Shown: in pieces, positions 8,800 through 52,324 of the stretch
How the letters are laid out: each line of letters starts with the position of its first letter
Numbering within the stretch: position 1 is the first letter of the stretch
Source of the DNA: Candidatus Shapirobacteria bacterium
Lineage (GTDB): Bacteria; Patescibacteriota; Microgenomatia; UBA12405
DNA: 64,000 nucleotides
Direction of reading: 5' to 3'
Assembly: GCA_022837635.1 (NCBI GenBank)
Contig: JALHFY010000001.1
Location: forward strand, 454,512 to 518,511
Notes under the pieces: generated by a model
What the model saw: the letters and a program-made list of their open reading frames with translations, nothing else
Database searches by the model: none
Told to the model about the DNA's origin: nothing
Translations under genes and position numbers: made by a program

Positions 8800-10848
8800 T
8801 TAGAACTGTTGAATAATGGTTATTTTTTCCGGAGAGAGAGGTAAACGTTTCCAAATATTAAAGATAGAAGGGAGAATTTTAATCTCATAATTATAGACTT
8901 GGGGTTGATTTTCAATAATTTTACCGGCATCGCTAATTTTTTGTTTAGTTAAGCGTTGTCGGAGCGGATCTAGATTTAATTTAGGCAAACTTTTACCAGT
9001 AATAGTTAGCTTACCGGTGGATTTTTGAGAAGTATTTTGAGTCGGAGTAAAGGAGAAAGAAAAATCTTTAACTGAGGTAATGGAATTTAAGAAAGCCTGA
9101 TCGTCTTTAAGCAGAGTGTTGATAATTTCCTCATTTTTACTGGGATCAACTTGAAGTAGAGACAGAGTTAAGGTGGCATCAACTTGAAGTTGGTCAGCTT
9201 CTTCTCCGAGTTCCCGATTAAAATCTAACTGTTTTTTATCAATAAAGAGAGTGCCTGGGAGAATACCTTCGAGAGAGGCTTCGGCTTTGATTTTTTCATC
9301 AATACGCTCATCTAGGGAATCAGTCACTCGCTTATTAAGATTAGCCTTGTCAGTTTCAGAAACTACCCGAACCTGACGTTTACTACCACCGGTGATAGGT
9401 GAAGAAGTTTTGGCGTGAAGATTAGAATTTTCTTTGAATGAAAGACGGGCGTCTTGACTTAAGTCATAATCGGAGCCAATATCGGTAGCAATAATATCGG
9501 CTTTGGCCTGACCCATGGTGATGGTGCCAGTGCCAAAATCGATAGTACTAGGAGGAATTTGGGCTGAAGTTAAAAGTTCGTATTGTTTACCGGATTCATG
9601 AAGCAAAAGACTACCTTTGGGTACATTTTGAATTTTATCGCTTTGGTTTAAGACAGTAACTTGACCTTTAGATTTATCACCAGTTTCTTTTTGACCGGTA
9701 GTATCCAAAGAATCGCTAAAATTTAAATTAAGGGTTTTTTTATGAGCCGGAATAGTCTTGTTGCTAAGAGTGTCAGCGTTAGAATCTAGGGTGATATTAA
9801 CATCACGGTTAATTTCTACCGGATTAAAGTTCATAACCACTTCGGCTCGGGTGAGTAAATAAGGTAGGAGTAAAATCAGAGGAGTCAGAGCTAAAGGTAA
9901 CAAAAAAAGCGGATTAAAGGAAAGTTTGGGTAATTTTATGTTTTTAAGGGAAAATTTAGGGAGACTGATTTTGGGGCTGGCTGGAGCTTCCTCAGTTTGG
10001 GGAACAACAAAGCCCAGATCAGCAGGAGCGACTTCAGTTTCAGAGATAGTTAAATTGCTTTCTTCTTCAACAATAGATGTTGTTTCTTCAGGTAGATTTT
10101 CTTCAACTGTTGGTGGTGGTGAAGGAGTTTCATCTGATTGAGCACTGATACTGCGAGTGTAAAGAGCAAAAAGATTGGGAGTGGGATAGGCTTCAACGTC
10201 AGGCAAGTGGAGAAAGGTTTCAATATTTTTTTTACCTATCCATGGGTAATTTTTTAAGTCTTCGATAATAGCATCAGCTATATTGCCAAAAACTAAAATT
10301 CGGGGAGGTAAAGCAGAATCAGTTTGAATGGTCAAGAGAGTATTCTCTAAATCCTGGGGAGTAAAATCAGTAGTTAAAGTTTGGGTCAAACGTTTTTTAA
10401 CTTCACCTAAATAAACTAGAGAAACTGAATATTCCTTTTTACCTAAATGAAGGAGAATAAAAGAAGGCGGAAAGGAGTCTGTTTTACCTAATGCTTCAAT
10501 AAAAGCCTCGTCGTTGCTGATAAAACCCATAGGTTTGAGCTTGAGAGAACGACAGAGATTTTCTAAAAGTTTGAGATAATCTGCGGCAATTTTGCCATCA
10601 CTACCAATCCAAAGAGGAGGCAAAATAAAAGCGGTATCAGCAGGCTCTGCTTCGGGACTGAGGGTAGCTTTATCAGCGGCGGCAGACAAGGAAACGTCGA
10701 CGGAACGCAGAAAAGAATCGGGATCATCGGTGGACCATTCGGTTTCAGGACCAATAGCGATTGGTAAGGAAGTTTGACCTTTTTTAATTAAGGCGACAGA
10801 GAGGGATTCAGGAGTAATGGATACCAACCAATAATAGGACTCAGTCAT
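8800..10848 (-). CDS. Large hypothetical bitopic membrane protein: cytoplasmic N-terminal domain of about 330 aa (possibly actin/FtsA-PilM-like), one TM helix, extracellular C-terminal domain of about 330 aa. Immediately upstream of the sortase.
   Basis: 682 aa. TM LFLLPLALTPLILLLPYLL. No recognisable catalytic motifs. Its stop abuts the sortase start at 8799/8800. Confidence 0.5.
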   Translation of the reverse strand: MTESYYWLVSITPESLSVALIKKGQTSLPIAIGPETEWSTDDPDSFLRSVDVSLSAAADKATLSPEAEPADTAFILPPLWIGSDGKIAADYLKLLENLCRSLKLKPMGFISNDEAFIEALGKTDSFPPSFILLHLGKKEYSVSLVYLGEVKKRLTQTLTTDFTPQDLENTLLTIQTDSALPPRILVFGNIADAIIEDLKNYPWIGKKNIETFLHLPDVEAYPTPNLFALYTRSISAQSDETPSPPPTVEENLPEETTSIVEEESNLTISETEVAPADLGFVVPQTEEAPASPKISLPKFSLKNIKLPKLSFNPLFLLPLALTPLILLLPYLLTRAEVVMNFNPVEINRDVNITLDSNADTLSNKTIPAHKKTLNLNFSDSLDTTGQKETGDKSKGQVTVLNQSDKIQNVPKGSLLLHESGKQYELLTSAQIPPSTIDFGTGTITMGQAKADIIATDIGSDYDLSQDARLSFKENSNLHAKTSSPITGGSKRQVRVVSETDKANLNKRVTDSLDERIDEKIKAEASLEGILPGTLFIDKKQLDFNRELGEEADQLQVDATLTLSLLQVDPSKNEEIINTLLKDDQAFLNSITSVKDFSFSFTPTQNTSQKSTGKLTITGKSLPKLNLDPLRQRLTKQKISDAGKIIENQPQVYNYEIKILPSIFNIWKRLPLSPEKITIIQQF

Positions 10849-12626
10849 TAGTTAAGAATAGCATAAATCCGCCTCTTACCGGATCCAGCCGATTCTTCGC
10901 GAGTGATCTTGAAATTACCTAAAACACGGGTATTTTCAACATGAGGACCAGTACAAATTTCTTTAGAGTAAAAATTGTGAGGACTGCCGATAATATAAAC
11001 GGTAACCATCTCTGGATAACTGTGACCGGCGAGAAAAAGAGCACCTTGAGATTTGGCGTCATCAAAGGAAATAATTTGATGAGTCACTGGTAAGGCGGCC
11101 TTGATTTGATCATTGACTAAAGATTCAATTTGTTGAATTTGATCGGGAGTAATTTTATTAGGATGAGTAAAATCAAAACGAATTCTGTCAGCAGTAATAT
11201 TTGAACCAGCCTGGTGAACATGGTCACCTAAAACTCGACGAAGAGAAGCATGCATTAAATGAGCGGCAGTATGATATTTAATAATAACAGCGGAATGATC
11301 GGCCAAACCAGATTTGAAAGTTCCAGCGGAAAGAGTTTGAGATTGTTTTTGATGCTCAGCTTTAAGACGATTGAATTCATCTAAATCCAAAGAGAGATTG
11401 TGTTTTTGAAGTTCTTCTTGGATTAACTCTAAAGGGAAACCAAAAGATTGATAGAGATCAAAGGCGTCAGTCCCGGACAAACTTTTTTGACGATTGATAA
11501 GTTGAGTGATTTTATTTAGACCTTTGTCCAAAGTGCGACGGAATTTAATTTCCTCAGCTTCTAAAGCAGTCAAAATAGAAGATTGATGTTGGGATAATTC
11601 CGGATAATCACCGGCAAAATTAGAAGCATTATTGATAATGATTTGACCTAAATGAGCACAAAAATTTTGATTAATACTTAACATTTTCCCTTGACGAACA
11701 CTACAGCGAATGAGACGACGGAGAACATAGCCACGATCTTTGTTACTAACCTCAACTCCATCCGCTAAAAGAAAAACAGCAGCTCGGAGATGGTCGGCAA
11801 TAATTCTGAAAGGAATGGGATTATCGGAATATTTTTGAGAGCTGAGAGCTTCGATAGCTTTAATAATCGGCTGAAAAATAGGAGTCAAATAATTGTCAGA
11901 AAGACCTGAAAGAACAGCAGTAGTTCGTTCAACACCCATGCCGGTATCGACGTTGGGAGCAGTTAAGGGTAATAGTTTAGCCTCGGCGGTTTTATTAAAT
12001 TGCATGAAAACGTTATTCCAAATTTCGATGTAGCGACCAGATTGGCAACCAGTCTTAAAATCAATATCGGGCTGGCCAAATTGAGTATCAAAAAAGATTT
12101 CGGTATCAGGACCACAAGGACCGGTGGTACCGGCGGGACCCCACCAATTATCCTCGACTCCTAAGGGGTGAATGTGTTCGGGCGAAATCCCCTGCTCCAG
12201 CCAAAGTTTTCGGGATTCTTCATCTAGGGGAGTATTGGCATCACCGGCAAAAATAGTGACATGGAGATTTTTGGGATTAAGATTAAGTTTCTGAGTAAGA
12301 AATTCAAAAGACCAAGGAATAGATTCTTGTTTGAAATAATCACCTAAGGACCAATTACCAAGCATTTCAAAAAAAGTATGGTGAAAAGTGTCACCAACAC
12401 TATCAATGTCACCAGTACGAATGCATTTTTGAACATTAACCAAACGTTTACCAGCAGGATGGGGTTGTCCAAGAAGATAGGGAACCAGGGGGTGCATGCC
12501 GGCAGAAATAAAAAGAGTGGTGGGGTCATTTTCAGGAATTAAAGAAGCCGAAGGAATTTCGACGTGATTTTTACCGACAAAAAAAGTGATAAAAAGTTCT
12601 TTTAACTCCCGTGCATTCATAGGCAA
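10848..12626 (-). CDS. alaS: Alanine--tRNA ligase (short form: catalytic, tRNA-binding and editing domains; no C-Ala domain)
   Basis: FFVGKNHVEIPSASLIPENDPTTLFISAGM...FHHTFFEMLGNWSLGDYFK (class II AlaRS core). HTAAHLMHASLRRVLGDHVHQAGS (editing-domain HxxxH). 592 aa. Confidence 0.9.
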   Translation of the reverse strand: MPMNARELKELFITFFVGKNHVEIPSASLIPENDPTTLFISAGMHPLVPYLLGQPHPAGKRLVNVQKCIRTGDIDSVGDTFHHTFFEMLGNWSLGDYFKQESIPWSFEFLTQKLNLNPKNLHVTIFAGDANTPLDEESRKLWLEQGISPEHIHPLGVEDNWWGPAGTTGPCGPDTEIFFDTQFGQPDIDFKTGCQSGRYIEIWNNVFMQFNKTAEAKLLPLTAPNVDTGMGVERTTAVLSGLSDNYLTPIFQPIIKAIEALSSQKYSDNPIPFRIIADHLRAAVFLLADGVEVSNKDRGYVLRRLIRCSVRQGKMLSINQNFCAHLGQIIINNASNFAGDYPELSQHQSSILTALEAEEIKFRRTLDKGLNKITQLINRQKSLSGTDAFDLYQSFGFPLELIQEELQKHNLSLDLDEFNRLKAEHQKQSQTLSAGTFKSGLADHSAVIIKYHTAAHLMHASLRRVLGDHVHQAGSNITADRIRFDFTHPNKITPDQIQQIESLVNDQIKAALPVTHQIISFDDAKSQGALFLAGHSYPEMVTVYIIGSPHNFYSKEICTGPHVENTRVLGNFKITREESAGSGKRRIYAILN

Positions 12627-17356: not shown

Positions 17357-19081
17357 TTATACCTCAATAATCAAGGGGAGGACCATGGGTTCGCGGCCGG
17401 TTTTTTCTTTAATGATGGTTTCAATATGGGCCTGAAGCTCGGTACGGATATAATCAAAATTGGCCGGAGCACTGGTTAAAACTTTGAATTTTTCCAGGAT
17501 TTCTTTTTTGAGGTAATTGATTAAATCGGTATTTTCCTTCATAAAAACAAAACCGCGAGAAAGAATGACGGGTTCTTTGAAAAGTGTTCCTTGAGCCTTA
17601 TTAACCATTAAAACAAAACTGAACATGCCGTCTTCGGCTAAAACTTTACGATCTCGAAGCACGGTAGCACCAACATCACCAACACCGAGACCATCAATTA
17701 AAACTTTATGGATAGGAATATGAAAGTTAGTGTCAACTTTTCCATTAGCGTAAAAAGTGACGGCAGAATCAAAATCAGGGGTAATAAACTGCTCTTCTTT
17801 GAAACCGACCATCTTGGCCATAGAGAAATAACTTTTGATATGACGATAATTTCCACCAATAGGCAAGAGATATTGAGGAGTGAGTAAATTCATTAAGAGA
17901 GCATGTTCTTTTTGATAACCATGTCCGGAAACATGAAGTTCTTCCTTGCCACCATAAGCGACATCGGCACCCATTTTGGAAAGAGTATCAATCATGTCAT
18001 TGATATTATTGGTAGTCCCGGGAATATAGTCAGGTGAAGAAAAGATGACTTTATCGCCAGATTTAATCTTAACTTTGTGTTTACCCATGACCATTTTACT
18101 TAAAGCTGAATCGGGTTGACCAGCAAAACCAGCCACTAGAAAGAGAAGTTTATTGTCAGGAAAATTTTTGGCTCTTTCAGGAGTAATAATGTCGTTGTCA
18201 GTTAATTGAATATAACCCAAGTCTTTGGCAATATTAATAGCTTTGTCGACGGAATAACCGACAATACAAATTTTACGACCGATAGATTTTCCATACTCAA
18301 TAGCTTGAGCCCAGCGAATAATGTTGCTGCTAATGGAAGTCACAAAAACTCGACCTTTGGCTTCGATAATTTGATGCTTAAAATTTTCGGCAATGTCACG
18401 CTCAGAGGGTGAATAACCTTCATGATCAGCACCAAGTGAATCAGACATGAGAGCAACGACTTTACGATTGCCAACATTGGCAATTTTTTTAAATTCCGTA
18501 CCTTTACCATCAAGAGGAAAAACGTCGAATTTGAAATCAGAACCATGATAAAAGGTACCCAAAGAAGTGTTGATAGCGAAATGAAAGGTATCAGGAATGG
18601 AATGAGTCACTCGGATAGGTTCAACAGTAAAAGGACCGGGGTGAAAAATATCACCAGGTTGGTAAACATGAACTGAAGCACGAACATTGTTTTCCGCCAA
18701 TCGGGATTCGATAAAAGCCGCGGCTAGTTTGGGAGCATAAACCGGAATTTGATTGCCAAGAATAGGTAAAGCATAACGGACAGCACCAATATGGTCCTCG
18801 TGACCGTGAGTGATAAAAATACCTAAAATTCGGTCTTTTTTATCAAGCAGATAACTGGTGTCAGGAATCTGGAGATCGACACCAAAGGCATCTTCTTCGG
18901 GAAAACCAACACCACAATCAACGATAATAATTTGGGACTTGGAAAAATCCCCTTTGGGAGCAAACTCATAAACAAACATGTTTTGAGTAACATCACCAAA
19001 AGAACCCAGTGAAGCAATGCGCAAGGCATCTTGACCGGGAGTAGATTTAAAATTTTTTTGAGTTTTATAAGTAGAATTCAT
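17357..19081 (-). CDS. rnj: Ribonuclease J (metallo-beta-lactamase / beta-CASP RNase)
   Basis: GIFITHGHEDHIGAVRYALP (HxHxDH motif) plus beta-CASP region. 574 aa. Confidence 0.9.
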   Translation of the reverse strand: MNSTYKTQKNFKSTPGQDALRIASLGSFGDVTQNMFVYEFAPKGDFSKSQIIIVDCGVGFPEEDAFGVDLQIPDTSYLLDKKDRILGIFITHGHEDHIGAVRYALPILGNQIPVYAPKLAAAFIESRLAENNVRASVHVYQPGDIFHPGPFTVEPIRVTHSIPDTFHFAINTSLGTFYHGSDFKFDVFPLDGKGTEFKKIANVGNRKVVALMSDSLGADHEGYSPSERDIAENFKHQIIEAKGRVFVTSISSNIIRWAQAIEYGKSIGRKICIVGYSVDKAINIAKDLGYIQLTDNDIITPERAKNFPDNKLLFLVAGFAGQPDSALSKMVMGKHKVKIKSGDKVIFSSPDYIPGTTNNINDMIDTLSKMGADVAYGGKEELHVSGHGYQKEHALLMNLLTPQYLLPIGGNYRHIKSYFSMAKMVGFKEEQFITPDFDSAVTFYANGKVDTNFHIPIHKVLIDGLGVGDVGATVLRDRKVLAEDGMFSFVLMVNKAQGTLFKEPVILSRGFVFMKENTDLINYLKKEILEKFKVLTSAPANFDYIRTELQAHIETIIKEKTGREPMVLPLIIEV

Positions 19082-19680: not shown

Positions 19681-20124
19681 TTAGAGTTGGACCGGGTTGC
19701 TGTTTTTGTCAACACATTCGGGAACCATACTTTTAGGAAAATTATATTTGGCAACCACATCACAAAGGATGGCACCGTTACCATCGTCGACAATTTGCCA
19801 GTCATTATCTTCTTTGGCAGCTAAGAACCAAGCACCTTCTCCATTTAGTAAAACTGTACCTGAAGCGTACTCGGAGGTAATTTCCTTGATAGTGACCGAG
19901 ACACTGGTGATTGGTAGCTTATGTTTTTGAGCCAGAGCTTCTCTTAATAAGAGTTGATTATCGGGCTTGAGAGTGGGTGATAAATCGGTATCTGGGGTGG
20001 TTGGCATAGAGGTAACAGTGGCGACAGGAGTTGGGACGGGATCGGGTTGTTTTTGGTAAAACATAACTGCAGCAGAGGTGGCTAAAATAGCACCAACAAG
20101 AAAGCCTAAAAGAATATTTCTCAT
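19681..20124 (-). CDS. Hypothetical secreted or membrane-anchored protein with a short PT-rich linker
   Basis: N-terminal hydrophobic anchor MRNILLGFLVGAILATSAAVMF. Then PDPVPTPVATVTSMPTTPDTD. Small C-terminal domain. Confidence 0.4.
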   Translation of the reverse strand: MRNILLGFLVGAILATSAAVMFYQKQPDPVPTPVATVTSMPTTPDTDLSPTLKPDNQLLLREALAQKHKLPITSVSVTIKEITSEYASGTVLLNGEGAWFLAAKEDNDWQIVDDGNGAILCDVVAKYNFPKSMVPECVDKNSNPVQL

Positions 20125-20131
20125 AATTTAT

Positions 20132-21187
20132 TTACCACTGAGGGATAAAATTTTTAATGTTATCTTCGTTGATTATAATCTCTTTTTGACCAGAGAGAAT
20201 CAGAGCAGCGGCTTTACGACATAAAGCTTCAATGTTTCTTTTAAGGGTCCGGACCCCGGCATCAAAACCAAGAGGACGAACAATGTTCATCCAAACAGAA
20301 TCGGCAATTTTCAATTCTTCAGGGGCAACACCGGCATCCTTCAAGGCTTTGGGTAAAATATAATCTTTACCAATAGCAATTTTTTCTTCATCAGAATAAG
20401 AAGGCATTTGAATAGTTTCTAAACGATCCATGACGGCAGTGGCAATGCGACTGGTGTTGTTACAGGTGGCGACAAAAAAGGCTTCGGAGAGATCAAAAGG
20501 ATAATCAATATAATGGTCGGAAAAACGGGCATTTTGTTCAGGGTCTAAGAGCTCGACCAGGACACCCATAATGGTATTAAGAGCATCATCAGCGACACGA
20601 TCAATTTCATCTAAAAGAATAACCGGATTTTTAGTTTGACATTGAGCTAGTGAACGAATAATAATCCCTGGTTCAGCTTCAGGATGAAGACGACTTTGAC
20701 CACGAAGATAAAGAGGATCACCTAGACCACCAAAGGGAATGCGAATAAGTTTGCGACCCATAACCTGGGCGATAGAGGTAGCCATAGTAGTTTTACCGGT
20801 ACCGACCAAACCGGTAAACAAGAGAATGGGGGCACGTAATTTTTCCCCAGGATTACGAGCTTTTTGTAAAGCTAAAACAGAAATATATTCTAAAATTCTT
20901 TGTTTAACTTCATCAAGACCATAATGGTTGCGATTCAGTTCTTCCTGGGCAAAACGAATATCCAAAATATCCTGACTGCGGGTATTCCAAGGAAGAGAGG
21001 TAACCCAATCGAGATATTTAGAGTCAGATTGATAATAGGACCAAAAAGTAGATTCGGAATTGGCATTGACCTCCAGTTGCGCAAAAATATCGTTGATTTT
21101 ATCTTGAAGACCGGCAGGCAGGTCAGCACCAGAAACTTTCTGTTTTAATTTTTCAATTGCCGCCGCAATAGTTAATTTCTCATCCAC
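20132..21187 (-). CDS. Lon-like AAA+ ATPase module (no LonN domain and no S16 protease domain)
   Basis: ...LDWVTSLPWNTRS...HYGLDEVKQRILEYISV...LLFTGLVGTGKTTMATSIAQVMGRKLIRIPFGGLGDPLYLRGQSR...NPVILLDEIDRV...LLDPEQNARFSDHYIDYPFDLSEAFFVATCN...AGVRTLKRNIEALCRKAA aligns motif-for-motif with the Lon AAA+ core. The ORF is only 351 aa, and the flanking genes leave no room for a protease domain. Confidence 0.8.
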   Translation of the reverse strand: MDEKLTIAAAIEKLKQKVSGADLPAGLQDKINDIFAQLEVNANSESTFWSYYQSDSKYLDWVTSLPWNTRSQDILDIRFAQEELNRNHYGLDEVKQRILEYISVLALQKARNPGEKLRAPILLFTGLVGTGKTTMATSIAQVMGRKLIRIPFGGLGDPLYLRGQSRLHPEAEPGIIIRSLAQCQTKNPVILLDEIDRVADDALNTIMGVLVELLDPEQNARFSDHYIDYPFDLSEAFFVATCNNTSRIATAVMDRLETIQMPSYSDEEKIAIGKDYILPKALKDAGVAPEELKIADSVWMNIVRPLGFDAGVRTLKRNIEALCRKAAALILSGQKEIIINEDNIKNFIPQW

Positions 21188-21207: not shown

Positions 21208-23394
21208 TTACTTTCTCTTAAAATTAGCGCGGTGGGGATTGGGAGAGAAGTTTTTGAACTCGCGATGGGCTGAGCCTCGGTCAGGATTTTGGCGGGGAGT
21301 CCCCGGATGAGCCGCTTTGAATTCGGGAGAAGACAATTTAATTTGATGATTGTCGTTGAAACCGGCAATTTTAACTTTCAGCTTATCCCCTATTTTGATA
21401 ATGGAACTGGGATCGGAAAGAAAACCACCGCTCATTTCGGAAACATGTAAAAGTGCTTCACGACCGGGCAAAAATTCAATAAAGGCACCATAGTTTTCAA
21501 CTCTGGTGACAACACCTTCGTATTCTTCACCAACCTGAACCTCTTTGATCATAGATTCAATTTCATAGGCGGCAGCTTCAATTTTGTCCTTATCAGGCGA
21601 GGAAATAGAACAACGACCATCATCGTCAATATCGATGTCAACGCTATATTTTTCCATTAAAGCTTTGATAGTTTTACCACCGGAACCGATGACTTCACCG
21701 ATTTTATCTTCAGGTAAATTAACCAATTTAATCTTGGGAGCGTAAACGGATAATTCTTTCCTAGGTTCGGGAAGAACGGAATCGATTTTGTCTAAAATTT
21801 GGAGACGGGCTTTAGTGGAAGCGACAAAGGTATCACGAATCATGTCCATAGATAAACCCATTCTCTTGATATCCAATTGAATGGCAGTAATACCATGACG
21901 GGTACCGGTGATTTTGAAATCCATATCGCCACAATGGTCTTCAATACCAGCAATATCAGTTAACAAGATATATTTTTGACTATCCGAAATCATACCGATA
22001 GAAATACCAGCCACCTTGTCTTTAATAGGGACACCGGCATCCATCAGAGACAGAGTTGAACCACAAGTGGAGGCCATAGAAGAAGAACCATTTTGGGATA
22101 AAACTTCAGAGGTGAGAGTAATGGTGTAAGGGAATTCGTCAATGGAAGGAATAACTGGCACCAGGGCTTTTTCAGCTAAAGCCCCATGACCGACTTCACG
22201 ACGACCGGGACGACCAAAACGGCCGGTTTGACCGGTAGAAAAAGGAGCGGCGGAATAGTAATGAAGATATCTTTTGGTGACCTCGCCATTACTGTCCTGG
22301 AGATATTGTTGCTCAGCCAAAGAGCCTAGAGTGGTCACCGTTAAGGCTTGAGTTAAACCTCTTTCAAAAAGAGCGGAACCATGGGTACAAGGTAGAACTC
22401 CAGCCTCGATATTCAAAGGACGAATCTCGTCAATAGCCCTTTTGTCATAACGATTGCCTTTGAGAGTGGCTTCGCGTAAATATTTACGGACTAAAGTATC
22501 GACAGCTTCCATTAAAAAGTTGAGTTCAACTTCTTCAGATTTAATTTTGGCTTCATAATGATCTTTGATTTTTTCTTTGATGGCTTCTTCGGCGGCCATA
22601 TGGGTACCATCAAGCCCGTCAGTGACAAATTTTTCCAGGTCAGTTTTGATCAATTTTTCAACTTCATCAATTAAGGCTTGAGTCGGAGCCATAGGCTCAT
22701 AATTAATTTTCTTTTTACCGAATTTTTTGGCAAAATCTTCCAATTGAGAGTTAATGTCCTGGCCAGTGGTAAAGGCTAAATCTAAAGCTTTGAGAACAGT
22801 GTCGTTGTCGACAATGTTGGCATCGGCTTCGATCATATTAATCCCCTCTTTATCTTTACAAGCCAAAAGATCGAGAGAAGAATTAAGTTGTTCGGAAATA
22901 CTGGGGAACAGGGTTAATTTTTGGTCATTAAGACCGACTCGGACAATAGAAACCGGACCATTGAAGGGAATGTCGGAAAGCATAAGAGCGGCGGTGGCGG
23001 CGGTAAAGGCGGGAATGACCACGTCATTTTCTTTGTCATTACTTAAAACAGTGGCGACAACCTGGACTTCATACTTAAAATCAGCGGGAAATAGAGGTCG
23101 AATGGAACGGTCGATAATGCGACCAAAAAGAATAGCGGTGTCAGAAGGAGCGCCCTCACGTTTGACCCATTTGCCACCTTTAATCAAACCACCCGCATAG
23201 AGTTTGTCTACAAACTCAACTGAGAGAGGAAAATAATCTTTGGATTTATCGATGGCACCTAAAACTACAGTGGCTAAAACCACCGTCTGACCCATTTGGG
23301 CTAAAACACTAGCGTTGGCTTGGGGAGCTAATTGACCTGTAGTCAGGATAATTTTTTTGCTGCCGAGAGCAATTTCGTGAGTATTTTTGGGCAT
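21208..23394 (-). CDS. pnp: Polyribonucleotide nucleotidyltransferase (PNPase) with C-terminal KH and S1 domains
   Basis: MPKNTHEIALGSKKIILTTGQLAPQANASVLAQMGQTVVLATVV. Two RNase PH-like cores. KH (GKTIKAL) and S1 (GEEYEGVVTRVENYGAFIEF). Confidence 0.9.
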   Translation of the reverse strand: MPKNTHEIALGSKKIILTTGQLAPQANASVLAQMGQTVVLATVVLGAIDKSKDYFPLSVEFVDKLYAGGLIKGGKWVKREGAPSDTAILFGRIIDRSIRPLFPADFKYEVQVVATVLSNDKENDVVIPAFTAATAALMLSDIPFNGPVSIVRVGLNDQKLTLFPSISEQLNSSLDLLACKDKEGINMIEADANIVDNDTVLKALDLAFTTGQDINSQLEDFAKKFGKKKINYEPMAPTQALIDEVEKLIKTDLEKFVTDGLDGTHMAAEEAIKEKIKDHYEAKIKSEEVELNFLMEAVDTLVRKYLREATLKGNRYDKRAIDEIRPLNIEAGVLPCTHGSALFERGLTQALTVTTLGSLAEQQYLQDSNGEVTKRYLHYYSAAPFSTGQTGRFGRPGRREVGHGALAEKALVPVIPSIDEFPYTITLTSEVLSQNGSSSMASTCGSTLSLMDAGVPIKDKVAGISIGMISDSQKYILLTDIAGIEDHCGDMDFKITGTRHGITAIQLDIKRMGLSMDMIRDTFVASTKARLQILDKIDSVLPEPRKELSVYAPKIKLVNLPEDKIGEVIGSGGKTIKALMEKYSVDIDIDDDGRCSISSPDKDKIEAAAYEIESMIKEVQVGEEYEGVVTRVENYGAFIEFLPGREALLHVSEMSGGFLSDPSSIIKIGDKLKVKIAGFNDNHQIKLSSPEFKAAHPGTPRQNPDRGSAHREFKNFSPNPHRANFKRK

Positions 23395-23994: not shown

Positions 23995-24789
23995 TTAAGC
24001 CGTTGGGGTGGGATTAGGCTGGTTGGTACCAGGCATTAGATTGCCTGATTTTTCCACATTTTCAATAGGTGTGGCTTCAACCGGAGGAGTAAAGGCAACT
24101 TGGGTGGCTCGCAAACAAAGGGCACCGGCTTCAAAGGTTTCCGGAGAAACGTTGACACTAAAGGATTGAGTGGCTACACGAAGACCAATTAACAGATTCT
24201 TGGCGACTTCAGGATCCATTTCCAAATTAAGTAAAGGTAAAAGGAAGGTTAAAATTTCGGAAAAAGGAGCATCGGGATCAAAAACAGTCGCTTTAGCCCA
24301 AAGTTTTTGGGATTGAGTGGGAGTAATTAAAACCCAGTTACCTTGATTGACAATGGAGGCTTTTTCTCCCAAAACTGACTCATCACCAAAGATAAAAGAT
24401 AAATCGGCACTAGCAGCATTGTTGTTGATTTGGATTTGATTGGTTTCCACTTTGGCAGCACCGGATTTGGTTTTGACCACCAAATTTAGACGACCACCGT
24501 CATCATTGTAAGAAACAGCTTCAATTTGATCGATAGGATAATCCAAAGATAAGACTAAATCGGAATTACTATAAGTGTCAGTCAACATCTCTAAACCACC
24601 AAGTTTTTGATAATTTTGATCAGGTTTTTGAGGACAAAAAACAGTCACCTGTTTACCCGATTTTTTCAGAGATAAGGCCAAAGCTAAGGCCGAGGCCAAA
24701 CCATCAACCGATAAAGTTGGAACCGCCACTAAAATACTTTTGGCGGTGGACAGCAAATTGTTGATTTCAGTAACGTTGTAGTTTTTCAT
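23995..24789 (-). CDS. NrnA-like DHH/DHHA1-fold protein with degenerate catalytic motifs
   Basis: Sits at the infB-(rbfA/nrnA/truB)-rpsO synteny position. ILVAVPTLSVDGLASALALALSL and EVAKNLLIGLRVATQSF parallel NrnA blocks (IILHRHVRPDPDAYGS... and AxxLxxGIxxDTGxF). The DHH/DHHA1 metal-binding His/Asp residues are replaced. Confidence 0.45.
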   Translation of the reverse strand: MKNYNVTEINNLLSTAKSILVAVPTLSVDGLASALALALSLKKSGKQVTVFCPQKPDQNYQKLGGLEMLTDTYSNSDLVLSLDYPIDQIEAVSYNDDGGRLNLVVKTKSGAAKVETNQIQINNNAASADLSFIFGDESVLGEKASIVNQGNWVLITPTQSQKLWAKATVFDPDAPFSEILTFLLPLLNLEMDPEVAKNLLIGLRVATQSFSVNVSPETFEAGALCLRATQVAFTPPVEATPIENVEKSGNLMPGTNQPNPTPTA

Positions 24790-26219
24790 TTCTTATAGGC
24801 TATTATACCATCTCCGACCTTAAAGTCAACATAGGGTTTAAAGGTCATACCGCACTCATTACCAGCCTTGACTTTATCGACCACATCCTTACCTTGGCGA
24901 ATACCTTCAACAATAGTGTTTTTGTGAATTTGATCGTCACGCATCAAATGGACAGTATCGCCTTTGGTGATTTCACCCTTGGTAACTTTAAGTCCGGCAA
25001 TACGAACCTTATTAATCTTAAATTCGGCAATAATAGTCCCCTCGCCTAGGATAGTGTCTTCAATGGTCGGATCAAGCATTTTGAGAACTTGGGCTTGGAT
25101 ATTTTCAATAATTTCGTAAATAATTTTGGATTCAATAATAGTCACCTTTTCGTTGTCGGCAAGATTTCTGATGGTTTTACTGACCGGAACATTAAAGGCA
25201 AAAAGTTGGGCATGACCGGTTTTGGCGGCGATAATATCGTTGTCATTGACTGGACCGACTCCGGAACTGATAATTCTGACATCATCACTAAGACTGCCTT
25301 TGAGAGCCTCCAGAGTACCTTCAACGTCGGCTTTAAGAACAATATGAAGTTGGGGATTGTCAATATCGACGGCAGCATCAGTATTAGTACTAGAAGAACT
25401 TTTTTCTATTTCGTGAGGAGTGGCAGTCAGTACGGAACCAACCATAGGCACAGAGGTAAAACCTAGAATTTCTACGGGAGTGGCAGGACCAGCTTCGGTG
25501 ATATTTTTACCCTCGGAATTAACCAAAGCTTTAACTTTAACCGGAGTGGTATCAATGAAGAATTGGTCACCAACGCGCAGAGTACCTTGTTTGACGATAA
25601 CTGAGGCTAAAGGACCACGTTGATTATCTAGGCGAGATTCAATTACGACAGCTTCTAGGTCTTTATCCGGTTCTGCCTTAAGTTCCATGATATCGGCATT
25701 AAGTAAGATTAATTCCAAAAGTTTGTCAATACCTTCACCAGTTTTACCGGAAACCGGAACCACAGCAATTTGACCACCGTAATCCTCAGGAACCAGATCC
25801 ATTTCTACCAATTGACCTTTGACCATATCAGGATTGCGGGTATCAAGATCGAATTTGGTCAAGGCGACAATGACCGGTAAATTATTATTTTTAATCTCTT
25901 TGATACATTCTTTGGTCTGGGCCATAACACCATCAGTAGCGGAAATGACCAAGACAACAATATCGGTGACATTGGCACCACGGGAACGCATGGCGCAAAA
26001 AGCGGCATGACCGGGCGTATCGATGAAGGTAATCAGACGTGGACCTTCTTTGGTATCAACTTCAGTTTGATAGGAGGAAATATGTTGAGTAATACCACCG
26101 GATTCCTTTTGAGCCACCCTAGCATGACGAATTTTATCCAAAAGAGTGGTTTTACCATGATCGATATGACCCATGACGGTAACAATAGGCGGACGAAATT
26201 TAGTAGTGTTTTGAGTCAT
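24786..26219 (-). CDS. infB: Translation initiation factor IF-2 (short form, G domain to C-terminus)
   Basis: RPPIVTVMGHIDHGKTTLLDKIRHARVAQKESGGITQHI (G1). DTPGHAAF (G3). VALTKFD (G4). 477 aa. Confidence 0.9.
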   Translation of the reverse strand: MTQNTTKFRPPIVTVMGHIDHGKTTLLDKIRHARVAQKESGGITQHISSYQTEVDTKEGPRLITFIDTPGHAAFCAMRSRGANVTDIVVLVISATDGVMAQTKECIKEIKNNNLPVIVALTKFDLDTRNPDMVKGQLVEMDLVPEDYGGQIAVVPVSGKTGEGIDKLLELILLNADIMELKAEPDKDLEAVVIESRLDNQRGPLASVIVKQGTLRVGDQFFIDTTPVKVKALVNSEGKNITEAGPATPVEILGFTSVPMVGSVLTATPHEIEKSSSSTNTDAAVDIDNPQLHIVLKADVEGTLEALKGSLSDDVRIISSGVGPVNDNDIIAAKTGHAQLFAFNVPVSKTIRNLADNEKVTIIESKIIYEIIENIQAQVLKMLDPTIEDTILGEGTIIAEFKINKVRIAGLKVTKGEITKGDTVHLMRDDQIHKNTIVEGIRQGKDVVDKVKAGNECGMTFKPYVDFKVGDGIIAYKK

Positions 26220-30817: not shown

Positions 30818-31558
30818 TTAACCTGTAATGGTAGAGATAAGGTCAGCAAAATAATCGACCACCGGAATGATGACCGGATAGCGAACCCGAGCCGGACCGA
30901 CAACTCCCAAAATACCACGATGAGGACCGGCTTGATAAGTCTGATAAACAAAGGAACAAGGTTCCAAATGTTCCATACCTAAATCCTCACCGACCAAGAG
31001 ATGGATCATCTGGGAAGATGGTTCACTGGTATTAACACCAGCTTTATTAATAATGTCAAACCAAAAATCAGGGTCATCTAAAAGTGATAAAACTGTCTTG
31101 GTGACATCAATATTGTAAAATTCCGGTTCTTCCAATAAATTCGAGGAACCAGAACTGTAAATGGAGCCTTGATCAGTGGTGGCGATAGCCAAAGAACGAG
31201 TCTTTTGAGCCAGTTCTTTGGTAGTTTCTTTTAAGAGTTTGTCAAATTCATTACGGTAGTTCCAGACTCTTTCCTTGACACCAATTTCGTCACTGACGGA
31301 CATACTTTTAGGTGTCATTAGGTTTCTGACATAGTATTTCAGACCCATGGAGGTCGGTGACCGACCAGAAGATAGATGGCCTTTTTTCAAAAAGCCGAGT
31401 TGGGTTAAAGCCGCCATTTCATTTCTAATGGTAGCTGAGGAAATACCTAGATTATATTTACGCTCAAGGGTTTCCGAGCCGACAGGCTGAGCCGAGTCGA
31501 TAAATTCTTCGGTAACACACTTGAGAATTTTGATTTGACGCTGAGTTAAATCTGCCAT
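30818..31558 (-). CDS. hrcA: Heat-inducible transcriptional repressor HrcA. The ATG start is at 31558, whereas the track ORF starts at an upstream TTG.
   Basis: MADLTQRQIKILKCVTEEFIDSAQPVGSETLERKYNLGISSATIRNEMAAL. Start abuts the CIRCE element. Confidence 0.85.
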   Translation of the reverse strand: MADLTQRQIKILKCVTEEFIDSAQPVGSETLERKYNLGISSATIRNEMAALTQLGFLKKGHLSSGRSPTSMGLKYYVRNLMTPKSMSVSDEIGVKERVWNYRNEFDKLLKETTKELAQKTRSLAIATTDQGSIYSSGSSNLLEEPEFYNIDVTKTVLSLLDDPDFWFDIINKAGVNTSEPSSQMIHLLVGEDLGMEHLEPCSFVYQTYQAGPHRGILGVVGPARVRYPVIIPVVDYFADLISTITG

Positions 31559-31565
31559 TAGCACT

Positions 31566-31594
31566 ATAATACTATTAGCACTAACTGATGTCAA
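31566..31594 (-). promoter_or_regulatory. Sigma70-like promoter embedded in CIRCE: TTGACA (plus 31589-31594) - 17 nt - TATTAT (plus 31566-31571)
   Basis: Minus-strand read: TTAGCACTTGACAtcagttagtgctaatagTATTATagtgctaATGGCAGAT. The -10 ends about 10 nt before the hrcA ATG. Confidence 0.45.
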
Positions 31595-31601
31595 GTGCTA
31601 A
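31575..31601. promoter_or_regulatory. CIRCE operator (TTAGCACTa-N9-aAGTGCTAA), with an extra upstream TTAGCACT half-site at 31558-31565
   Basis: ttagcactAACTGATGTCaagtgctaa matches consensus TTAGCACTC-N9-GAGTGCTAA. A second direct half-site lies 9 nt away and overlaps the hrcA ATG. Confidence 0.85.
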
Positions 31602-46610: not shown

Positions 46611-47412
46611 ATGTTTATTAAAAAACGAAATTGATCCTGCTTATATAGATAGGGCGGAAATCATTTTGAGGGAAATTTGTAAAACGAAACGAGGTAAATT
46701 TTTGGAGGTCGGTTGTGGGCGAGGTTTTTACCTTAAAGCAGCAGATTTTCTAAGTCCGAATCTAGAAATAATCGGAATAGATTTGAACTCGAATTATCTT
46801 CAAGTGGCCAGAAAATATGTTGATAATCCAAAAATAAAAATTGAAAAAGGAGATGCTCATAAATTAAGATTTGCTAATGAGAGTGTGGATTTAGTAGTAG
46901 CGAGTGAAATTTTGGAACACGTAGATGATGATTTGAAGGTCTTGAAAGAAATGAGGCGAGTCTTAAAAAAGAATAAAAAGGTGATTGTTAGCGTGCCCAA
47001 TCATAATTATCCTTTTTACTGGGATCCTTTGAATTGGATTTTAGAAAAAACAACTAAAAAACATCTTCCAGCTGATAAGTGGTGGTTAGCTGGAATTTGG
47101 GCTGGACATAAACGACTCTATTATGAAGATGAATTAAAAAATAAAATCAAGGCTAGTGGTTTTAAGATAGAAAAAATCTTTCGAACAACACATTATTGTC
47201 TACCAGCAGCACATTTTTTACTTTATGGAATTGGAAAAAACATTGTGGAAAAAGGTTGGCTTAAAGATTTTAATCGCTTTGAAAAGAACAGACAGTACAA
47301 TCATTTTTTACAATTAATTAAAAAAATATTTAATATTTTTGATAAGAAAAACAAAGAAAATTTTGCAAAGGATAAGACTACAGTTGGTTTGGTAATGATT
47401 TTGAAAAAATGA
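46576..47412 (+). CDS. Class I SAM-dependent methyltransferase (Methyltransf_11-like)
   Basis: GKFLEVGCGRGFYL (motif I). ...VVASEILEHVDDDLKVLKEMRRVLKKN (motif post-II/III). Confidence 0.75.
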   Translation: MINMKNCSSKIRCLLKNEIDPAYIDRAEIILREICKTKRGKFLEVGCGRGFYLKAADFLSPNLEIIGIDLNSNYLQVARKYVDNPKIKIEKGDAHKLRFANESVDLVVASEILEHVDDDLKVLKEMRRVLKKNKKVIVSVPNHNYPFYWDPLNWILEKTTKKHLPADKWWLAGIWAGHKRLYYEDELKNKIKASGFKIEKIFRTTHYCLPAAHFLLYGIGKNIVEKGWLKDFNRFEKNRQYNHFLQLIKKIFNIFDKKNKENFAKDKTTVGLVMILKK

Positions 47413-49138
47413 GTACCTGGGGGTGGTCATAGACAGTAAAAGCTTCCTCGGCGGTATCATCACGAAAATAAATGCCGGGATATGAACAATTATGGTCGAT
47501 ATCTAGCCAACTTGTCCTCTGCCCCGGATAATTGGTAGGGCCAAAATAAATACATTGTTTAAGAAAAGGAAGTGATATGCCCGGATAAGATTGAAATCTA
47601 TTGATCAAAGAAAAATTTTTATGACCGGAAAAGAGGTCTTGGTAAAATTGACTGGAGATAGGATAAAAATCGGGAACACGGGGAATACTGGCCCATAGCC
47701 GATTACTGGAGAGAACTAGATAGTCAATTTCATCTAAACTTGAATTGATTTGTTGCCATTTTTGAGGAGTGTCTTGATCAAAGAAAGGTAGAGAAATTAT
47801 CTGATAAGGAGAAGAACCAAGAGGCAGGGCATCATCCCAAGATTCAGCACTTAGTTTTTTGTCAAAAGGGATATTATCTAAAATCCAACGACTGGCCTGA
47901 ACTCGAGAATGAGGACGGGAATAGATTGATAAAAAAGCACAGACTGATAAAAATTGAAGAACTAGAAACCAGGATAGAAATTTTTTGTTGGGGTAGAAAC
48001 GAGTAAAAAATAGTGTAAAAATGAGACCAAGATAAGGATAGATTAGTAAGTAATAGCGCATAGAATGGGAAAATTGTGTTGACTGAAAAACAAACAAAGC
48101 AACAACCCAGATAGCAATAATTAAGACCGGATTAAAATTTAATCGAAGTTTTTTAAAAGATTTAATTAAGAGGATTAAGAAAAAGACACTAAAAGGTAAA
48201 CCCAGTCCCCAGATAAGTAAATTTTGTAAAGGATGAAGAAATAGATTTCGATTTAACCATTGGATTCCCGGTGGATAAAAAGAATCAGGACGAGAATAAT
48301 ACCGGAGAGAATTAAGACTATTTAAGAAATCAGGACTCAGCTGAAAGGAGAAGGAAAAAGTATAAGGTGAAATAAGTCGAAAAAATAAAATTGAAACTAA
48401 AAAGGCAGACAAGGTGGAAAATAAAATGCTGTTTTTTTGTTTAGCTTTTAAGAAAAGCCAGAGCCAAAGTAAAAAAAGAATCGGTAAGAAATAAAAAGCG
48501 GACACTTTACAACTCAGAGCTAAGGCAAAAGCTAAAGAGGCGGGAATAATTTTTTGATAAAGTAAAAGACAAAAACTGAGTAATAAAAAGAAATTTAAGA
48601 AGGTGTCAACGGCAAAGAAGTGTGACAGTTGAACAGGTAAAATTAATAAAGAATAAGTCAGAGGGGCTAAGAGTAAAAAATGAGAACGAGGCCGGAGTTT
48701 TTTGACAATGAAATAAATGATGAAAATATTTAAGGAATCAAAGAGAGCTGACAAAACACGTCCGATTAAAACGAGATGATGATAATTGTTTAAGTTAAAA
48801 ACAACAGCAATGACTTTAGTTAAAAAAACTGGAAAAGTGCCATAGACATAAAAACGATATTGATCATAGTTATAAGGATTGAGAGGTGAAGTGGAATAAT
48901 CAAAATAGTTTTTTAAGCTACTAGGTAAACTAATATCGGTGGCCAACATAGTTAAAAATCTTTCGTCAGGATGGAGATGAAAACCTTGATCCCAATTGAG
49001 ACCATAAATTCTGAGAACAAAAGCGAAAATAAAAATAAGTCCTAAAATAATTTGATGTTTAGTGATGCGAATCATGTTGATAGAGGCGAATAGTCGGCCG
49101 ATCAAAAACCGTCCAAGTTTCTTCGGCGTTTTCACCAT
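47378..49138 (-). CDS. GT-C-fold glycosyltransferase, PMT/ArnT-like (GT39/GT83-like), paralog 1
   Basis: About 13 TM helices. First loop ...LNWDQGFHLHPDERFLTM... Confidence 0.6.
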   Translation of the reverse strand: MVKTPKKLGRFLIGRLFASINMIRITKHQIILGLIFIFAFVLRIYGLNWDQGFHLHPDERFLTMLATDISLPSSLKNYFDYSTSPLNPYNYDQYRFYVYGTFPVFLTKVIAVVFNLNNYHHLVLIGRVLSALFDSLNIFIIYFIVKKLRPRSHFLLLAPLTYSLLILPVQLSHFFAVDTFLNFFLLLSFCLLLYQKIIPASLAFALALSCKVSAFYFLPILFLLWLWLFLKAKQKNSILFSTLSAFLVSILFFRLISPYTFSFSFQLSPDFLNSLNSLRYYSRPDSFYPPGIQWLNRNLFLHPLQNLLIWGLGLPFSVFFLILLIKSFKKLRLNFNPVLIIAIWVVALFVFQSTQFSHSMRYYLLIYPYLGLIFTLFFTRFYPNKKFLSWFLVLQFLSVCAFLSIYSRPHSRVQASRWILDNIPFDKKLSAESWDDALPLGSSPYQIISLPFFDQDTPQKWQQINSSLDEIDYLVLSSNRLWASIPRVPDFYPISSQFYQDLFSGHKNFSLINRFQSYPGISLPFLKQCIYFGPTNYPGQRTSWLDIDHNCSYPGIYFRDDTAEEAFTVYDHPQVLIFSKSLPNQL

Positions 49139-51373: not shown

Positions 51374-52324
51374 CTACAATAATATCAAAAAGCCAAGGAG
51401 AGTGATGATGCCACCAATGATTCCTAAGAATTGTGATGGGAATTCTACCCCAGATTTAGGCAGAATAATGCGGGTGGGAGTGGGTTCCTCGGCAATAACC
51501 TGAGTGGGTACTGGAGTATTGGTTGGAGGAATTGGGGTATTGGTGGGTTGCGGAGCATTGGTTGGTGGGATAGGTGTGGAAGTTGGTTGAGGTGTATTGG
51601 TTGGAGGCACAGGAGTGGGGGTGGGAGTGTTGGTAGGCACTGGAGTATTGGTGGGTTTGGGGGTAGAAGTTGGTTTAGGAGTAGAAGTTGGGATGGGGGT
51701 ATTGGTAGGTTTGGGAGTAGAAGTTGGGATGGGGGTATTGGTAGGAATAACCGGAGCTGGTTCATAACCAAAAATAATCAACCAGTCATTAAAATCATAA
51801 TCCTGAGTAATATCATCGATGACAGCATCTGCCCAGCATTGGATCTGATGAGGACCATCTGATTCCTGTTGGGCGCGAGTGATTTCATTACTTATAGGGA
51901 TGACTGCATTACCATTTTTGCCACAGGTATTACCTGGGGGATTTGGAGCTACCCAACCATAAGCATCGGCAGGATCTCGACTGGCCCTAACTGATAATTT
52001 GTATGTAGCTGGAACAGAACTAGTGCTGAGTAACTGGGAAAAAACTTTAGTAGAATTGATTAGCATGGGGGAGCTACCAGTATTTACCGAGATGACATCG
52101 TTGGGGTTGGCAGTGTTTTGAAGGCGAATAGTAAAGGAATTATCTGAAATTTTAGCAGTGAAAAACATTTTCACTGATTTATTGGCAGCAAAGGTAACAT
52201 GTGGTGGATCAACTCGACTCCTGTCTATGGCTAAACGACGTCTATCCTGATTTTGTTTAACTAAAAATAAAGCCCCTCCTAGAGAAAATAAAAAGAACAG
52301 AAGACTAAGTATTTTGTATTTCAT
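51374..52324 (-). CDS. Secreted protein with an N-terminal globular domain, a long Pro/Thr-rich repeat linker and a C-terminal hydrophobic anchor
   Basis: Signal peptide MKYKILSLLFFLFSLGGALFLV. ...PTNTPIPTSTPKPTNTPIPTSTPKPTSTPKPT... End ...ILPKSGVEFPSQFLGIIGGIITLLGFLILL. Confidence 0.6.
   Translation of the reverse strand: MKYKILSLLFFLFSLGGALFLVKQNQDRRRLAIDRSRVDPPHVTFAANKSVKMFFTAKISDNSFTIRLQNTANPNDVISVNTGSSPMLINSTKVFSQLLSTSSVPATYKLSVRASRDPADAYGWVAPNPPGNTCGKNGNAVIPISNEITRAQQESDGPHQIQCWADAVIDDITQDYDFNDWLIIFGYEPAPVIPTNTPIPTSTPKPTNTPIPTSTPKPTSTPKPTNTPVPTNTPTPTPVPPTNTPQPTSTPIPPTNAPQPTNTPIPPTNTPVPTQVIAEEPTPTRIILPKSGVEFPSQFLGIIGGIITLLGFLILL
51500..51757 (-). repeat. Degenerate tandem repeats encoding P-T-N-T-P-I/K-P-T-S units, including a perfect 36-nt tandem duplication (about 51681-51752)
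   Basis: gtagaagttgggatgggggtattggtaggtttggga occurs twice in tandem. Explains spurious ORFs 51445..51771(-) and 51548..51862(+). Confidence 0.8.

Follow-up and report, generated by a model that had tools for sequence, protein, structure and literature searches.

A stand-alone Lon-lineage AAA+ ATPase of Patescibacteria with a rewritten pore loop

We report on a gene for a 351-amino-acid (351-aa) ATPase in a 64,000-nucleotide stretch of Candidatus Shapirobacteria DNA (assembly GCA_022837635.1, contig JALHFY010000001.1, positions 454,512 to 518,511), which was analyzed as a whole and is hereafter called the window. We are highly confident in describing the protein as a LonA-derived AAA+ module that carries neither the LonN domain nor the S16 protease domain. 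Together with its relatives, hereafter the short forms, it makes up what the comparisons below indicate to be an old, monophyletic and conserved family of Patescibacteria type. This family appears to have kept the motor and its internal scaffolding, relaxed the residues that grip the substrate in Lon and fixed a new acidic loop. On balance, we lean towards reading the protein as a repurposed, non-proteolytic and probably non-threading ATPase of the Lon lineage, which would remodel a client by means of its acidic loop. The original prediction for this gene had described a stand-alone Lon AAA+ module from the letters of the window; the large and old family, the concentration of its changes in the pore and its synteny with pnp and RNase J or with groES-groEL go beyond it.

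Assignment of the protein to the Lon lineage

The gene is an open reading frame (ORF) at 20132..21187 on the minus strand, with a GTG start and a TAA stop. The original prediction had aligned its product block by block with the AAA+ core of Lon, and this alignment held throughout: all six motif blocks it had quoted are present (LDWVTSLPW, HYGLDEVKQRILEY, GLVGTGKTTMATSIAQVMGRKLIRIPFGG, NPVILLDEIDR, LLDPEQNARFSDHYIDYPFDLS and AGVRTLKR), and Pfam, TIGR00763, PDB and Foldseek all point to Lon. More specifically, Pfam recognizes AAA (residues 122-260, E=1.8e-15) and Lon_lid (residues 283-335, E=3.2e-11) and no other domain, and the NCBIfam model TIGR00763 'lon' matches with E=5e-95, at model positions 253-568 of 795 only. 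All strong matches in a PDB sequence search were LonA or LONP1 (best E=3e-73), and the AlphaFold2 (AF2) model of the protein (pLDDT 80.5, pTM 0.79), used as the Foldseek query, retrieved Lon structures exclusively. Identity to LonA is about 37-45% across the NTD-3H bundle and the entire AAA+ module with its Lon lid. A non-Lon AAA+ family with a better profile fit, which would have spoken against the assignment, was looked for and rejected, as the runner-up NCBIfam model is CbbX at E=1.5e-7.

The domains that flank this module in Lon are missing, as had been predicted. The ORF begins at about Lon position 252, 20 nt past the stop of pnp at 21208, and the next gene, which encodes a 147-aa protein, starts at 20124, 7 nt beyond the end of the ATPase gene; given these tight flanks there is no room for LonN or S16. 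Neither Pfam Lon_C (PF05362) nor LonN (PF02190) matches the 351-aa protein. When E. coli Lon was compared with the whole window by tblastn, residues 252-579 aligned to the 351-aa ORF, while its N domain and S16 domain found nothing better than E=2.6 in the six frames of the 64 kb, so that no frameshifted remnants are left. The protein terminates exactly at the boundary between the lid and the protease domain. Among five defining features of LonA it therefore has one, the Lon-type AAA+ module with a lid subdomain, and is short of four: the N domain, the S16 domain, the pore-loop motif and the family score, which is 319.6 bits for TIGR00763 (cut-off 608) and 252.6 for NF008053 (cut-off 891). Residues and segments of the protein are listed below; residue numbers above 351 are those of E. 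coli Lon.

20858..21187, minus strand: N-terminal helical region (residues 1-110), aligning with E. coli Lon 252-350 and all-helical in the AF2 model
20786..20812, minus strand: Walker A, GLVGTGKTT; Lys132 kept, flanking Pro-Pro of LonA replaced by Leu-Val
20666..20704, minus strand: pore loop 1, rewritten, RGQSRLHPEAEPG (LonA: RGHRRTYIGSMPG)
20597..20620, minus strand: Walker B, ILLDEIDR; Asp193 and Glu194 kept
20558..20596, minus strand: pore loop 2 region, rewritten, VADDALNTIMGVL (LonA: MSSDMRGDPASAL); conserved Pro436 gone
20480..20524, minus strand: pre-sensor-1 beta-hairpin, hallmark of the HCLR clade, FSDHYIDYPFDLSEA; Lon Tyr456 kept, Glu458 present as Asp
20453..20470, minus strand: sensor-1, ATCNNT; Asn243 invariant
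20417..20434, minus strand: Arg finger, VMDRLE; Arg255 invariant, equivalent to Lon R484
20183..20341, minus strand: Lon-type lid (small alpha) subdomain; Pfam Lon_lid E=3e-11
20240-20263, minus strand: sensor-2, DAGVRTLK, within the lid; Arg313 invariant
20135..20161, minus strand: C-terminal end, NIKNFIPQW, aligning with the LonA lid-to-protease linker (E. coli NLHDYLGVQRF)

In the alignment to E. coli Lon, the N-terminal region is homologous to the last helix of the LonA N-domain plus the NTD-3H bundle, and its YLDW is the equivalent of Lon Y294/W297. It carries a lineage-specific 6-residue insertion, STFWSYYQ, which is confined to the Microgenomates sub-family and is not found family-wide. 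At the other end, the terminal 'PQW' was considered as a docking motif and rejected: it corresponds to the ordinary lid-protease linker of LonA and is not kept in the wider family, where the C-terminal residues vary (QAW, QMY, PNYY, ILV, long tails) and no conserved docking motif was seen.

A family of short forms with a complete ATPase site and a rewritten pore

Database searches recovered an identical protein (P0001) and more than 120 clusters at 70-100% identity, all 348-374 aa long, with named members in Candidatus Shapirobacteria, Woesebacteria and the 'Microgenomates group'. A profile-free search of 1.8 billion cluster representatives yielded more distant short forms (36-57% identity, 348-669 aa) with the same end point. 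Some members are longer: P0128, P0138, P0140, P0142, P0146 and P0150 bear Pro/Gln/Thr-rich, apparently disordered N-terminal extensions of 50-320 aa with no LonN domain, and P0172 and P0173 have C-terminal tails of 75-196 aa without similarity to S16.

A scan of GTDB species genomes, using patterns that would miss LonA of the candidate phyla radiation (CPR), gave 80 loci among the matches listed, and these split into two classes with no intermediates. The first comprises 43 loci with ORFs of 341-472 aa and a Tyr-less pore loop; neither S16 nor LonN was found within 10 kb on either side of them. In the other 37 loci lies a canonical LonA of about 765-859 aa (a few cut at contig ends), always with RGHR[RK]TY, S16 and LonN. 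The original prediction had suggested looking for the same truncated architecture in relatives, and the 43 loci and more than 120 clusters show it to be widespread. The short-form loci are titled Shapiro-, Ames-, Levy-, Davies-, Roizman-, Pace-, Nomura- or Saccharibacteria or 'Patescibacteria group'. A number of record titles are implausible ('uncultured Gammaproteobacteria ... binchicken', 'Candidatus Methanoperedens') for loci with a gene order of Patescibacteria type. For instance, the locus titled 'Candidatus Methanoperedens sp.' (L009, DATMWB010000003.1) holds a 79%-identical gene copy and 13 syntenic genes of Shapirobacteria type, the titles of L011, L012, L017, L020-L023 and others also look wrong, and many contigs of metagenome-assembled genomes named 'uncultured Gammaproteobacteria/Pseudomonadales ... 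binchicken/SRP...' carry the Patescibacteria block of pnp, short form and RNase J. Such titles likely reflect placeholder or mis-assigned taxonomy or bin contamination.

The age and unity of the family emerge from an unrooted neighbor-joining tree of 72 AAA+ modules, from which Walker A and both pore-loop segments had been removed. The 23 short forms included separate from all LonA sampled in 194 of 200 bootstraps, and a full-length CPR LonA (Candidatus Falkowbacteria, P0177) groups with the canonical Lons. Within-family distance in this data set is 0.97 for the short forms versus 0.91 for LonA. Full-text searches of the literature turned up neither a Lon AAA+ family devoid of the protease nor a published account of Lon in Patescibacteria, and the peptidases named in the Ch65 Microgenomates genome paper are secreted ones only; the family is apparently undescribed so far.

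Could the gene have arisen by decay of a full-length lon, as a duplicate or a pseudogene fragment? The protein does cover the middle 40% of LonA alone and, at 320 bits, reaches about half the TIGR00763 cut-off. However, comparison of the window gene with five relatives gave dN/dS values of 0.09-0.16 (computable for four of the five, with synonymous sites saturated), which argues for strong purifying selection. Length is steady at about 351 aa in the more than 120 clusters, the same architecture is found in 43 species loci, all catalytic ATPase residues are invariant and the family is monophyletic and deep-branching. Frameshifted remnants, which the original prediction had named as a possible sign of decay, do not occur in any frame of the window. 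We regard decay as already refuted, with practically no likelihood left to it.

The motor residues are strictly kept. Lys132, Asp193/Glu194, Asn243, Arg255 and Arg313 are invariant across 23 diverse short-form members, and the family retains the Walker A consensus GxxGxGKT, the HCLR pre-sensor-1 hairpin (DHY.D.P.DLS) and Y294/W297, which in Lon belong to NTD-3H and are the docking partners of this hairpin (PMC7239648). As judged by alignment, the ATP binding and hydrolysis residues of an oligomeric AAA+ ATPase thus appear complete in the short-form family.

The changes concentrate in the pore. Among the 153 columns that are conserved in LonA, the short forms keep 109 and have shifted 18; eight of the 18 shifted columns fall in the 18-residue segment of pore loop 1 (E. 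coli 388-405), one is P436 in pore loop 2, two flank Walker A and three are in the lid. Family-wide, the LonA sequence RGHRRT-Y-I-G-x-M-PG has become RGxS[RK]x-x-P-[DE]-A-E-PG, and the window protein reads RGQSRL-H-P-E-A-E-PG where LonA has RGHRRT-Y-I-G-S-M-PG, with His for Tyr398, Pro for Ile399, Glu for Gly400, Glu for Met402 and Ser for Arg395. It matches neither the LonA motif RGHR[RK]T-Y-[IVL]-[GA], whose Tyr is absent or variable in all AAA-only members, nor the aromatic-hydrophobic-Gly pore loop 1 of AAA+ translocases, since it has His-Pro-Glu at these positions. Tyr398 is invariant in all 83 LonA considered, namely 46 in the motif table (45 representatives and E. coli Lon) and those of the 37 canonical loci. 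Across 57 diverse short forms, position 398 is F in 13, S in 9, H in 8, Y in 6, N, Q and E in 4 each, K in 3, R and L in 2 each, and I and D in 1 each, and is without F, Y or W in 38. The positions that follow are far more uniform: 399 is Pro in 35 of the 57, 400 is Asp or Glu in 50, 402 is Glu in 52 and 403 is Pro in all. In the substrate-bound structure of Lon, the polypeptide is held by a pincer made of Y398 and I399, and R395/R396 brace the pore loop against E458; the I399A substitution impairs function (PMC7239648). Overall acidity was also considered as a family trait and rejected, as net charge did not differ significantly between 23 short and 46 LonA sequences (p=0.076); the isoelectric point is 5.2 for the window protein versus 9.2 for the AAA region of E. 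coli Lon.

We have moderate confidence in the following mechanism. The ATPase would still assemble into a ring, an assembly that has to be assumed without the protease domain and that is suggested by an active site needing an Arg finger supplied in trans. Being without the conserved aromatic-hydrophobic pair of the pore loop, such a ring is unlikely to be a threader, a classical unfoldase or the partner of a peptidase: it would neither thread polypeptides hand over hand nor feed a peptidase. Instead, a client may be bound, held or remodeled by the altered acidic axial loops as the protein goes through ATP-driven conformational cycles.

Known systems provide partial parallels. With LonA (TIGR00763, MEROPS S16; E. 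coli Lon, B. subtilis LonA PDB 3m6a, human LONP1) the protein shares homologous NTD-3H and AAA+ regions including the lid, along with the residues of Walker A and B, sensor-1, Arg finger, sensor-2 and the HCLR pre-sensor-1 hairpin; it differs in having neither the LonN/PUA-like nor the S16 Ser-Lys protease domain, in the exchange of Tyr-Ile-Gly and Arg395 for x-Pro-Asp/Glu-Ala-Glu and in the rewritten pore loop 2. Like ClpX and HslU, it is a single-polypeptide AAA+ protein of the HCLR clade without a protease domain of its own. ClpX and HslU, however, have a GYVG aromatic-hydrophobic-Gly pore loop and peptidase-docking elements and are usually encoded beside clpP or hslV, and none of these three traits was found for the family of the 351-aa protein. 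FtsHi, reported as FtsH-related 'pseudo-proteases' of plant chloroplasts (PMC8197885), resemble the 351-aa protein in the type of change, being non-proteolytic derivatives of an AAA+ protease kept for another ATP-dependent job. The FtsHi proteins retain an inactive protease domain, whereas the 351-aa protein has lost this domain altogether and has a changed pore loop. LonC of Meiothermus taiwanensis, reported as a Lon-like protease without ATP-powered unfolding activity (PMC3391209), is likewise a Lon-lineage protein with one half disabled and shows that the scaffold can be repurposed; it is a mirror image, in that LonC keeps the protease and the 351-aa protein keeps the ATPase residues with no protease domain.

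Gene neighborhood and candidate functions

The ATPase gene lies in a co-directional block that runs, from a CIRCE-like site, through hrcA-grpE-dnaK-dnaJ, nusA-infB, a gene for a 264-aa protein, rpsO-pnp and the ATPase gene to the 147-aa gene, a uracil-DNA glycosylase (UDG) gene, RNase J, proS-ftsK and a gene for a RodZ-like helix-turn-helix (HTH) protein. The nearest members of interest are the following.

21208..23394, minus strand: pnp (RNase_PH twice, KH, S1), 20 nt upstream of the ATPase gene, conserved upstream neighbor
19681..20124, minus strand: gene for a 147-aa membrane-anchored protein, 7 nt downstream of the ATPase gene, no Pfam match
17357..19081, minus strand: RNase J, conserved downstream neighbor, separated in the window by the 147-aa gene and the UDG gene

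Co-transcription with pnp is argued for by the gaps of 20 and 7 nt and by the lack of a terminator, no terminator-like site having been found between pnp and the ATPase gene. PNPase is encoded upstream on the same strand in 29 of the 43 short-form GTDB loci (within about 1 kb in 27), and RNase J downstream on the same strand in 31 (within 200 nt in 15); where RNase J is further off, a UDG gene and/or a small gene lies in between. The pnp-ATPase-RNase J arrangement is still seen in relatives with 43-45% protein identity. In P0161 (41% identity), rpsO-pnp is found 4.5 kb upstream and ftsK downstream, and in P0173 (38%) the synteny is lost. In one sub-clade the AAA-only gene stands head-to-head with groES-groEL (L019, L020, L035, L037, L041) or with groEL (L021). 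This arrangement is located at about 9.5-10 kb in each locus, and in all six groESL-type loci a TTGTCAA resembling a -35 element is found just upstream of the predicted ATPase start.

The 147-aa protein consists of a hydrophobic anchor at the N-terminus, a linker rich in Pro and Thr and a conserved C-terminal domain whose last residues are ...FPKSMVPECVD, and a 41% identical homologue occupies the same position in a Woesebacteria locus. We considered it as an obligatory partner of the ATPase and rejected it as a sporadic neighbor: its gene is absent in L004/L005 and was detected in only one of the 43 GTDB loci (E<=1e-5).

From this neighborhood, the client would most likely be a housekeeping component of the machinery for proteostasis or RNA processing whose genes lie alongside, which in most lineages means pnp and RNase J and in one sub-clade groES-groEL. 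A narrower proposal, compatible with the repurposed ATPase that we favor, is that the protein acts as the energy-dependent part of a degradosome-like assembly with PNPase and/or RNase J. It draws on gene order: in most lineages, and down to 43-45% identity, the gene is placed between pnp and the RNase J gene, all co-directional and separated by very short gaps. This is guilt by association, however: the same block holds unrelated housekeeping genes (UDG, proS, ftsK, the RodZ-like HTH gene), and neither the groESL-adjacent sub-clade nor P0173 shows the link. Moreover, acidic pore loops are unexpected for direct RNA binding and Pfam detected no RNA-binding domain in the protein, and we consider this role rather unlikely.

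The original prediction had offered two functions, an unfoldase or chaperone-only Lon relative and the partner of a protease encoded elsewhere. The stand-alone architecture behind them stands. Both functions are weakened, because each assumes a threading motor and the pore-loop pincer is His-Pro here and unconserved family-wide.

In the second of these, the AAA+ ring would serve an orphan S16 or a self-compartmentalized peptidase in the manner of ClpX/ClpP or HslU/HslV. Truncation exactly at the lid/protease linker is what such a split would look like, stand-alone unfoldases of the HCLR clade with separate peptidases are well known, and orphan S16-only proteins do occur in metagenomes on large contigs (for example P0301, 216 aa, and P0403, 254 aa). 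Yet partner peptidase genes normally adjoin the ATPase genes, and in about 50 loci no S16, ClpP-like or other cytosolic peptidase gene adjoins this one. S16 and LonN are missing not only from the surroundings of the 43 loci but from the 64 kb of the window, where the only peptidase among the ORFs scanned with Pfam is a sortase, hence none of the cytosolic kind. A search seeded with the S16 domain of the Falkowbacteria LonA missed even its own seed and yielded nothing but short, incomplete pieces of S16, most of them from Deltaproteobacteria and Myxococcota and none with a CPR name; we count it neither for nor against a split. Feeding a peptidase would further require translocation, for which the pore-loop residues are lost, and the variable C-terminus offers no conserved docking motif. 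A split Lon is accordingly improbable in our view.

The other proposal is a protease-free unfoldase or disaggregase, whose ring would thread or pull polypeptides as a chaperone alongside DnaK/DnaJ/GrpE and GroESL and would grip them through a residual aromatic or His at position 398 or through the aromatic NTD-3H insertion STFWSYYQ. The ATPase residues and the scaffold of pre-sensor-1 hairpin and NTD-3H are indeed intact (Y294, W297, Y456, and E458 as D), position 398 is F or Y in 19 of the 57 short forms and His in 8 (F, Y or H in about half), groES-groEL is adjacent in one sub-clade, and the window gene lies about 10 kb downstream of the CIRCE-headed hrcA-grpE-dnaK-dnaJ cluster. On the other hand, the aromatic is unconserved, with S, N, Q, E, K, R, D, L or I in 30 of the 57; the hydrophobic-Gly pair has become Pro-Asp/Glu and the bracing Arg395 is gone; and STFW is a trait of the Microgenomates sub-family only. 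In Lon both Y398 and I399 touch the substrate, and the I399A substitution is harmful (PMC7239648). A search that tolerated up to 6 mismatches found no CIRCE operator ahead of the ATPase gene or between groES and the divergent AAA gene. Taken together, we find an unfoldase unlikely.

Several points also weigh against the repurposed, non-threading ATPase that we favor. About one third of the family has Phe or Tyr at position 398, with His in the window protein, and weakened threading is conceivable. In LonA it is largely the protease domain that drives hexamerization, and AAA+ fragments on their own tend to stay monomers, so a stand-alone ring is not guaranteed. We infer both the oligomeric state and the client. 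Synteny with pnp and RNase J could be inherited super-operon order (nusA-infB-rpsO-pnp...ftsK) without a functional link, and it is lost in some lineages.

Other features of the window were recorded along the way. Control of the ATPase gene by HrcA/CIRCE was considered and rejected, since the CIRCE-like site at 31575-31601 fronts hrcA-grpE-dnaK-dnaJ and none lies near the ATPase gene. This site, TTAGCACTAACTGATGTCAAGTGCTAA, with 2 mismatches to the consensus, is the better of two overlapping CIRCE-like inverted repeats (31558-31601) that head the hrcA-grpE-dnaK-dnaJ operon. They lie where the HrcA gene begins (30818-31594); this gene is short (258 aa), and only the C-terminal HrcA domain matches. 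Its true start is probably further downstream, because the predicted TTG start overlaps the operator. The 264-aa protein encoded between infB and rpsO (23995-24789, minus strand), in the usual rbfA/truB slot, has no Pfam match; its gene is kept at this position in 19 of the 43 related loci and represents an uncharacterized member of the nusA-infB-rpsO-pnp block.

Several translation proteins are short, namely IF2 (477 aa, 24786-26219), AlaRS (592 aa, ending in a tRNA_SAD domain, 10848-12626) and MetRS (470 aa, 56895-58307), which would fit genome reduction in Patescibacteria. A 359-aa ORF at 60884-61963 (minus strand) fuses Sua5/YrdC (TsaC) to TsaE and lies near TsaD; recorded together with it is 59269-60291 (minus strand). 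The fusion and TsaD make up a compact gene arrangement for tRNA t6A synthesis. Large ORFs without a Pfam match are found at 8800-10848 (682 aa), 47378-49138 (586 aa) and 51374-52324 (316 aa), all on the minus strand, with cell-envelope genes (sortase, DUF2298, glycosyltransferases, UbiA prenyltransferase, MurJ) as neighbors. Between 6500 and 56500, a span of about 50 kb, the minus strand carries almost all genes. Cumulative GC skew climbs monotonically from one end of the window to the other, and these features fit a single replichore with strong gene-strand bias.

Implications for the Lon family and for Patescibacteria

To our knowledge, Lon is defined by the fusion of an ATPase with a protease, and work on its AAA+ module has dealt solely with its role as the motor that feeds the protease chamber. 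A motor kept for so long without the protease, the recognition domain and the pore-loop Tyr, and with its ATPase residues invariant, implies that the Lon scaffold has a second activity apart from degradation. The short forms are currently annotated as 'ATP-dependent Lon protease' (JGI) or 'AAA family ATPase' (NCBI). The label 'Lon protease' is unsuitable for them, and reconstructions of proteostasis in Patescibacteria that count the short form as Lon are probably wrong. At 39 kDa and easily expressed, the protein provides a compact test case for a motor of the HCLR clade with pore loops not used in threading, and its fixed place between PNPase and RNase J is a testable lead on RNA and protein quality control in ultrasmall bacteria. 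More tentatively, and as a possibility that we would hold only loosely, the window protein may be the founding example of an ancient class of Lon-lineage ring ATPases, widespread in Patescibacteria, with no protease, no gripping pore and an acidic axial loop. Such a class would remodel a core housekeeping complex, for example PNPase/RNase J, or basic ribosomal or nucleic-acid-binding proteins, and may be the sole descendant of Lon in many of these reduced genomes.

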